From: an uncultured Bacillota bacterium
GTDB lineage: Bacteria; Bacillota_I; Bacilli_A; RFN20; CAG-288
Direction of reading: 5' to 3'
DNA length: 64,000 bases
Assembly: GCA_949282275.1 (NCBI GenBank)
Contig: CASDOO010000010.1
Coordinates: 36,597-100,596, forward strand
The notes below the pieces were generated by a model. That model saw nothing but the letters and a program-made list of their open reading frames with translations, was not told where the DNA came from and ran no database searches. Below are positions 27,630 to 27,653 of this stretch, piece after piece. The first letter of the stretch is position 1; each line of letters starts with the position of its first letter. A program made the position numbers and the translations under genes.

Positions 27630-27653
27630 AGTATATCATTGCAATGATATACT
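27630..27653. promoter_or_regulatory. Perfect 24-bp palindrome, candidate operator overlapping the promoter of the DUF3990 operon.
   Basis: AGTATATCATTG|CAATGATATACT, 16 nt upstream of the DUF3990 start. It overlaps a minus-strand TTGAAG, 16-nt spacer, TATACT promoter-like arrangement. Confidence 0.55.

Follow-up and report, generated by a model that had tools for sequence, protein, structure and literature searches.

What reads the long perfect palindrome that stands before a small operon in the genome of an uncultured Bacillota bacterium, and what is controlled through it? The palindrome, AGTATATCATTGCAATGATATACT, lies at positions 27630-27653 of a 64,000-nt stretch of contig CASDOO010000010.1 (assembly GCA_949282275.1), the whole of which we call the window. 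The operon runs from it on the minus strand and encodes a protein of the DUF3990 family followed by a 207-aa partner that ends in an XRE-type helix-turn-helix (HTH) domain. A preliminary description, made from the letters alone, had proposed an operator at which the HTH protein represses its own operon. This proposal is supported by the conservation of the palindrome among homologous operons, by its specificity for them, by its covariation with the recognition helix of the HTH domain, and by loci that lack this domain and serve as natural controls. We consider it very likely that the palindrome is the operator of the two-gene cassette and the site of autorepression by the cassette's own HTH protein.

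Mechanistically, a dimer of the 207-aa protein would bind the half-sites TATCATT and AATGATA through its C-terminal XRE-type HTH domains, the two 7-bp half-sites lying 2 free bp apart. The occupied site would cover the promoter spacer, the TG of an extended -10 element, and the first two bases of the -10 hexamer TATACT, and the bound dimer would sterically exclude RNA polymerase, repressing the DUF3990 gene together with its own gene in a loop of negative autoregulation. Autorepression from a palindrome embedded in a promoter is textbook biology, and as a conventional mechanism it teaches little in itself; the value of the locus lies in what the operator controls, an unstudied DUF3990 pair, and in the clean comparative signal that surrounds it.

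A palindrome embedded in a promoter

The inverted repeat is flawless, exactly as first described: its arms, AGTATATCATTG at 27630-27641 and CAATGATATACT at 27642-27653, are 12 nt each, complementary over 100% of their length, and abut with 0 nt in between. No other perfect palindrome in the window is as long, the runner-up having arms of 8 nt, and arms of at least 12 nt were reached in 1 of 200 first-order Markov simulations of the window. The runner-up itself, AATTTTGCGCAAAATT at 10978-10993, has the arm length that is the modal maximum in those simulations (8 nt). Six metagenome contigs from the same species carry the identical palindrome in the same gene arrangement.

On the minus strand, the palindrome fills the spacer of a promoter-like site and covers its -10 element. 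A consensus scan places TTGAAG at 27657-27652 and, after a 16-nt spacer, TATACT at 27635-27630, the hexamers and spacing being those given in the preliminary description. An extended -10 TG lies at 27638-27637, and the right operator half-site contains this TG as well as the first two bases of the -10 hexamer. With a transcription start site about 7 nt past the -10, the 24-bp palindrome would span about -30 to -7 and would remain untranscribed.

Conservation of the probable operator and its match to the HTH protein

The comparison with homologous operons used one genome per species and yielded 80 loci with DUF3990 homologs of 47-66% identity, of which 79 have usable upstream DNA; motif matches were counted with up to 2 mismatches within 200 nt upstream of the start codon. 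The DUF3990 gene and a partner gene are kept together in all 80 loci, and a full-length homolog of the HTH protein is encoded directly downstream in 78 of them, the partner in the other two (L037 and L080) consisting of the N-terminal domain only. The preliminary description had named the absence of the palindrome from homologous operons as the observation that would count against an operator. What we found is a 16-bp palindrome of the form 7-N2-7 in 75 of the 79 loci, in one or two copies and at the same promoter position, belonging to one of two classes: class A, TATCAYTNNARTGATA (TATCAYT-NN-ARTGATA), to which the window's site belongs, and class B, TAATACYNNRGTATTA (TAATACY-NN-RGTATTA). Two of the four exceptions have palindromes of their own in the same place (TATACCCCCAgtTGGGGGTATA in L043; arms TATGCCATTA and TAATGGTATA in L076), and the other two are the loci without an HTH domain.

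The motif is also specific to this position. Matches to motif A or B number 127 upstream of the cassettes (the window's own included) versus 16 in the other ~470 kb, and all 16 of these have 2 mismatches. A perfect 7-N2-7 palindrome lies no more than 130 nt upstream in 51 of the 78 loci of HTH type (65%), as against 2.0% of shuffled sequences and 1.7% of 410 control windows taken from these loci. In the window, further copies occur at chance level, whether the search is for the 12-mer with up to 2 mismatches, the 16-bp core with up to 3, or the 7-mer half-site, and the class A core is the sole copy; the window thus holds a single operator, without a dispersed regulon. The search for additional copies and half-sites that the preliminary description had suggested, run on the window and on the flanks of the homologs, accordingly turned up none in excess in the former and a few weak ones in the latter.

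The homologs also indicate what part of the palindrome matters. The central dinucleotide varies freely between loci (GC, AT, AC, GT, TT, TC, CC, GG, and GA are all found), and for this reason the conserved unit, as judged from the comparison, is the 16-bp core; the 24-bp perfection and the missing spacer, which are correct as a description of the letters, are incidental to the putative functional unit.

The geometry of the promoter is conserved along with the site. Among the class A sites proximal to the promoter (n = 51), TTGACA ends 2-3 nt upstream of the site and TAAT follows it; the operator bases T15 and A16, which never vary among the 51, begin a TATAAT -10, and the aligned positions 15-20 read TATAAT in 39-51 of the 51 loci. 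The TG of ...AATGATA acts as an extended -10 in the class A alignment, so that homolog operators occupy the 17-nt spacer and part of the -10. The window shares this geometry; it has one site, which is perfect, a -35 weaker than that of the homologs, and a spacer of 16 nt. Two operators per operon are usual among the homologs: class B operons (L047-L085) carry, besides the site in the promoter spacer, another one ~14 nt further downstream, immediately ahead of the ribosome-binding site; in many class A operons an additional site, frequently the better of the two, lies ~50 nt upstream; and in one class A clade (within L021-L036) the site at the promoter is degenerate, TGACATTTTAATGATA, and a perfect one stands ~50 bp upstream of it.

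The spacing between operator and gene bears on where translation begins. Between the palindrome and the first in-frame ATG, at 27614, there are 15 nt, and the distance of 16 nt given in the preliminary description is essentially right for that codon, but the true start of the DUF3990 gene is probably the ATG at 27605. The 16-bp operator lies 19 nt from ATG 27614 and 28 nt from ATG 27605 (M4), and we favor the latter because a spacing of 28 nt is typical of the homologs (27-28 nt is the mode, found in 28 of 51 loci) and because a 223-aa version of the protein beginning at 27605 is present in public annotation (P0245). The Shine-Dalgarno-like sequence is 2 nt from ATG 27614 when its core is taken as AGGAG, and 9-11 nt from ATG 27605, depending on the core chosen.

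These comparisons bear first on the possibility that the palindrome arose by chance in an AT-rich promoter region and has no dedicated function. The intergenic region has 31% G+C, TATA-like -10 sequences are partly self-complementary, and the promoter scan was no richer than scans of shuffled sequence, all of which would favor accidental symmetry. However, 12-nt arms are as rare in simulated windows as described above, 75 of 79 loci have the same half-sites at the equivalent place in the promoter although the surrounding DNA cannot be aligned, and perfect 7-N2-7 palindromes exceed their ~2% control rate to reach 65% of loci. We give chance next to no weight.

The same data bear on a structural role, in which the palindrome would act as an RNA or DNA hairpin (a stability or attenuation element in the 5' untranslated region, an upstream terminator, or a cruciform) instead of a protein site. 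An 81-nt minus-strand stretch does fold the palindrome as a 10-bp hairpin (-17.5 kcal/mol, z = -2.2), but this fold energy is unremarkable, and a transcript that begins past the -10 contained in the palindrome would not include the palindrome. Within clades, it is the half-site sequence that is kept and not mere complementarity; the conserved 7 + 2 + 7 unit leaves a loop of just 2 nt; in many homologs another copy precedes the -35; a T-run is missing, and Rfam gives no match at the palindrome at E-values up to 1; and the motif is gone where the HTH domain is absent. A hairpin function is, in our estimate, extremely improbable.

A link between the operator and the operon's own protein comes from the recognition helix, which in the window reads LRSIQMYEQ (residues 166-174 of the partner). 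Across the homologs, helices of the form R[SN]IQM pair with the half-site TATCAT or TATCAC in 37 of 37 cases, RMIQL or RQIQL with TATCG in 5 of 5, and NTIRA with TAATAC or TGATAC in 21 of 22, and single loci have pairs of their own, such as RTIQQ with TACTCC. Loci retrieved independently obey this rule, with RMIQL and TATCGC on a phage-like contig (L089), RNIQM and TATCAT in Subdoligranulum, and RSIQM and TATCAC in Collinsella, and on another phage-like contig an RTIQQ helix accompanies a new palindrome, TACTCCCATGGGAGTA. Judged from these pairings, the half-site sequence covaries with the cassette's own recognition helix, and conserved 7-N2-7 palindromes that covary with the helix point indirectly to a two-fold symmetric site bound by an HTH dimer.

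Natural loci without the HTH domain complete this comparison. In four of them the partner is either the N-terminal domain alone (L037, L080, and L092) or an unrelated small protein (L088, in Lactobacillus crispatus), and upstream of these four cassettes there is no operator-type palindrome. One of them, the distant relative L092, is on the Treponema saccharophilum plasmid pTS1, where genes for a ToxN/AbiQ toxin and a HEPN nuclease lie next to it.

It could be argued that another regulator, encoded by the host, binds the site, and XRE-family proteins are indeed numerous in Firmicutes genomes. The motif, however, is confined to the cassette, with no other copy in the window and almost none in the flanks of the 79 loci; it covaries with the cassette's recognition helix; and it is missing where the cassette has no HTH domain. 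Module and operator also move together between phyla and unrelated genomic contexts (Clostridia, Bacilli, Collinsella, Treponema-type relatives, and phage-like contigs). Since the operator is cassette-specific and travels in this way, its regulator must be encoded by the cassette, and the HTH protein is the sole candidate. We regard a host regulator as very improbable.

If the HTH protein is the one that binds, it could still activate the promoter by binding the spacer as MerR does, or it could require DUF3990 as a co-repressor or de-repressor, in which case simple autorepression would be wrong. The site does lie in the promoter spacer, where MerR-type activators also bind, and the -35 in the window is imperfect; moreover, several type II toxin-antitoxin (TA) systems are known to have operator binding that the toxin modulates (conditional cooperativity), which lends some plausibility to a co-repressor. 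Against activation, MerR-type promoters have over-long spacers of 19-20 bp, while those of the window and the homologs measure 16 and 17 nt, respectively; the near-consensus TTGACA/TATAAT promoters of the homologs should work without an activator, and the protein is of XRE type, not MerR type. The spacers of 16-17 nt together with the XRE-type protein make a MerR-type spacer-binding activator site unlikely. Modulation by DUF3990 would be compatible with autorepression by the HTH protein and would merely refine it. We assign a small probability to these departures from simple autorepression.

Several considerations weigh against the autorepression model, or at least temper it. We infer physical binding, the dimer stoichiometry, the transcription start site, and repression over activation. 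The promoter scan of the window found 4 sites versus 4.4 expected in shuffles, no better than chance, and for this reason is not evidence on its own; the -35 (TTGAAG) and 16-nt spacer of the window are weaker than the promoters of the homologs. Finally, the specificity classes are largely clades, so that the independent events behind the covariation are fewer than the locus counts.

The DUF3990 pair as a possible toxin-antitoxin or defense module

What the operator controls is less clear than how it would be read. The DUF3990 open reading frame (ORF) matches PF13151 with 143.9 bits against a cut-off of 32.2 (residues 6-171), and the partner matches HTH_3 (PF01381) with 32.8 bits against a cut-off of 23 (residues 144-201). 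The XRE-HTH gene that the preliminary description placed beside the palindrome is thereby confirmed, with the refinement that the second gene encodes a protein of two domains, of which the HTH is the C-terminal one. The two genes are small, adjacent, and co-oriented, overlap by 14 nt, and are translationally coupled, in the gene layout of type II TA systems. An antitoxin with a DNA-binding domain that autoregulates at an operator in its promoter, a further mark of such systems, is what the sequence and the comparison with homologs point to here. The cassette is also patchy and mobile in the manner of type II TA systems, forming a low-GC island and occurring in unrelated contexts in several phyla. 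From these features, and from the family and PADLOC matches and the constancy of the N-terminal domain described below, we reason that the cassette is a TA or phage-defense module, a proposition to which we give roughly even odds.

In such a module, DUF3990 would be the effector and the N-terminal domain of the partner its neutralizer, fused to a repressor domain. That the N-terminal domain accompanies DUF3990 even where there is no HTH suggests that it acts on DUF3990 as a neutralizer or partner, the HTH adding transcriptional control. This domain (about residues 1-140) is all-helical and has no CxxC pairs. Its ~140 residues match no Pfam family even at E-values up to 10, and an identification with DUF3791 was not supported; against the PDB, the partner has no match beyond the HTH, and in NCBIfam neither cassette protein has a match above cut-off, the HTH alone giving sub-threshold ones. 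The confident AlphaFold model of the partner (predicted local distance difference test, pLDDT, 89.5) has a helical N-terminal domain followed by a helical bundle, the HTH, which Foldseek superposes on the solved XRE repressors C.AhdI, SinR, P22 c2, 434 Cro, CylR2, and HigA2, all of which bind palindromes, and on CapH (template modeling score normalized to the target ~0.8 for the first six; 0.77-0.91, with probability 1.00 and E ~0.03, for the first five). HigA2 is also among the sequence matches of the HTH domain.

DUF3990 belongs to the ADP-ribosyl clan of Pfam (PMC7955679) and forms the C-terminal domain of the Serratia type VI effector Rhs5 (PMC4524185). Among 67 diverse homologs, H9 (in YHGS), P18, D117, D125, and Q157 are invariant, and G10, S11, Y34 (in GFYCT), T36, E44, and R123 are nearly so. 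If the fold resembles that of ADP-ribosyltransferases (ARTs), the third catalytic position might be Q157 rather than a glutamate; from the alignment of the 67 homologs and a poor structural model, no residue is identifiable as the third of an H-Y-E or R-S-E motif. We advance tentatively, as a suggestion that falls a little short of probable, that the cassette represents an uncharacterized TA or abortive-infection system widespread in gut anaerobes. It would comprise an ART-fold DUF3990 effector with an unusual, conserved H...Y...Q/D residue set, an antitoxin made of a new all-helical domain and an XRE repressor domain, and at least 4-5 orthogonal DNA specificities on one small repressor scaffold, for example, R[SN]IQM/TATCAT, RMIQL/TATCG, NTIRA/TAATAC, and RTIQQ/TACTCC.

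PADLOC assigns the DUF3990 protein to PDC-M42A (E 3.7e-43) and residues 1-125 of the partner, encoded by the adjacent gene, to PDC-M42B (E 1.2e-6), in output that carries no curated cut-off. PDC-M42 is a phage-defense candidate, not experimentally tested, that was derived from genes embedded in BREX, DISARM, or type I restriction-modification (R-M) loci (Payne et al., bioRxiv 10.1101/2024.01.29.577857). Both of its component profiles thus match the cassette proteins, although the PDC-M42B profile, of 138 positions, is without the HTH part that the cassette partner carries.

On the other side of the balance, the toxin and defense interpretation meets a number of difficulties. The cassette in the window is not in a defense island, lying instead among housekeeping neighbors between a PFK-family gene and groEL, outside the context from which PDC-M42 was defined. 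AlphaFold models DUF3990 poorly (pLDDT 62); the top Foldseek matches of this model are ARTs, namely diphtheria toxin, PARP14/15, TreX, TreTu, and CARDS, none of them significant (E at least 0.55); and a sequence search of the PDB gave no solved relative of DUF3990. Databases also contain single-chain proteins that combine DUF3990 with an HTH, which is unusual for classic TA pairs.

In these single-chain proteins, the HTH is either C-terminal, as if the two genes had been joined, or N-terminal, and other proteins extend DUF3990 by hundreds of residues without a Pfam match. Such fused or extended proteins, including P0398 (448 aa), P0331 (533 aa), P0337 (381 aa), and P0292 (791 aa), could be real fusions or gene-call artifacts.

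Among the known systems close to the cassette is MqsR/MqsA of Escherichia coli. There, the gene for the toxin precedes that for the antitoxin, which binds the toxin with its N-terminal domain and ends in an XRE-type HTH that recognizes a short palindrome in its own promoter and represses the operon; this gene order, domain layout, and operator are established for MqsR/MqsA, and the same arrangement is proposed for the cassette. The proteins themselves differ: MqsR is an RNase, whereas the toxin candidate of the cassette is a DUF3990 protein of the ADP-ribosyl clan, and the N-terminal domain of the partner, unlike that of MqsA, is without zinc-binding CxxC motifs. Membership in the MqsA family (TIGR03830) was rejected, the match reaching 22.6 bits against a cut-off of 61.8 and covering the HTH alone. 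HigB/HigA and other type II TA systems with XRE antitoxins likewise have the reversed gene order with the toxin first, an XRE-HTH antitoxin, and palindromic operators that overlap the -35 and -10; HigA, however, consists of little more than an HTH domain, which contacts the toxin as well, whereas the cassette has a separate domain of ~140 aa before the HTH and an unrelated family as candidate toxin.

RES-Xre systems (ParST and MbcTA) and DarTG resemble the cassette as proposed here in joining a toxin of the ADP-ribosyl clan to a dedicated neutralizer, which in RES-Xre is also of Xre type. In RES-Xre, the antitoxin gene comes first and the HTH is N-terminal, in contrast to the toxin-first order and C-terminal HTH of the cassette, and the RES-Xre/ParS antitoxin profile (NF049845) was rejected with 12.7 bits against a cut-off of 90 as well as on gene order. 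DarG, unlike the cassette partner, is a macrodomain without an HTH, and DUF3990 is a Pfam family of its own, with putative catalytic residues. Controller proteins (C.AhdI and C.BclI) and phage repressors of the Cro/cI type are dimeric XRE proteins with palindromic operators that overlap their own promoters, and proteins of the C.AhdI/Cro/cI type are the best structural matches of the cassette HTH domain. The controller proteins, on the other hand, are single-domain regulators of R-M genes that act as concentration-dependent activators and repressors on paired C-boxes, whereas the cassette has no R-M genes nearby and a single site in the window. The element is best filed as a predicted XRE-type autorepression operator in an uncharacterized, TA-like DUF3990/HTH cassette, one that would work like the operators of MqsRA, HigBA, and the controller proteins.

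The DUF3990 family comprises ~2,650 sequence clusters at 50% identity, and the searchable literature offers passing mentions of it in four papers but no functional study, and nothing under the names PDC-M42 or PF13151. The operator and its HTH partner provide a regulated promoter, a predicted repressor-DNA pair, and a means to switch the operon on in order to study DUF3990. The natural classes of helix and half-site, in turn, form a compact data set for deriving the rules of DNA recognition in the XRE family or for obtaining orthogonal repressors.

Genomic setting of the cassette

Table 1. Features of the cassette, its promoter, and its operator, in window coordinates.
Feature	Position	Strand	Basis
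Perfect 24-bp palindrome, AGTATATCATTG and CAATGATATACT	27630..27653	.	12-nt arms, no spacer; simulation
Conserved 16-bp operator core TATCATT-GC-AATGATA (7-N2-7), class A motif TATCAYTNNARTGATA	27634..27649	.	Homolog comparison
-35-like hexamer TTGAAG	27652..27657	-	Scan; homologs have TTGACA at the equivalent place
Extended -10 TGaTATACT	27630..27638	-	Sequence, scan, aligned homolog sites
Shine-Dalgarno-like AGGAGAG	27615..27621	-	Read directly from the sequence
DUF3990 gene	26934..27614	-	Maximal ORF 226 aa, 223 aa from the probable start at 27605; Pfam, PADLOC PDC-M42A
Gene of the 207-aa partner protein	26324..26947	-	C-terminal XRE/Cro-C1 HTH (residues 143-201); PADLOC PDC-M42B
G+C-rich hairpin AAAACGGCTGG-acaa-CCGGCCGTTTT	26182..26207	.	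Between the convergent PFK gene and HTH gene

The cassette differs in composition from the DNA around it: the two genes have 39% G+C and the intergenic region upstream of them 31%, while the surroundings have 51-56%. The resulting island, window positions 26200-27950 at 37-40% G+C, lies between the PFK-family gene (25014-26162, plus strand) and the groEL terminator, and no direct repeats were found to flank it. The neighbors of the cassette are the PFK-family gene, YfhO, groEL, and groES, and the whole 64-kb window lacks tRNA genes and has no match to an Rfam family at gathering score. The hairpin between the convergent PFK and HTH genes (Table 1) is likely a bidirectional terminator that ends the operon.

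Upstream of the operator, ~560 nt of AT-rich DNA (27654-28214) contain an ORF of 92 aa (27822-28100, plus strand). Both are kept in contigs of the same species only, with nothing similar in the 80 homologous loci, and the ORF, which matches no Pfam family, may not be a gene. At the far end of this region, a second G+C-rich hairpin, at 28159-28203, has a T-run after it on the minus strand and probably serves as the terminator of groEL.

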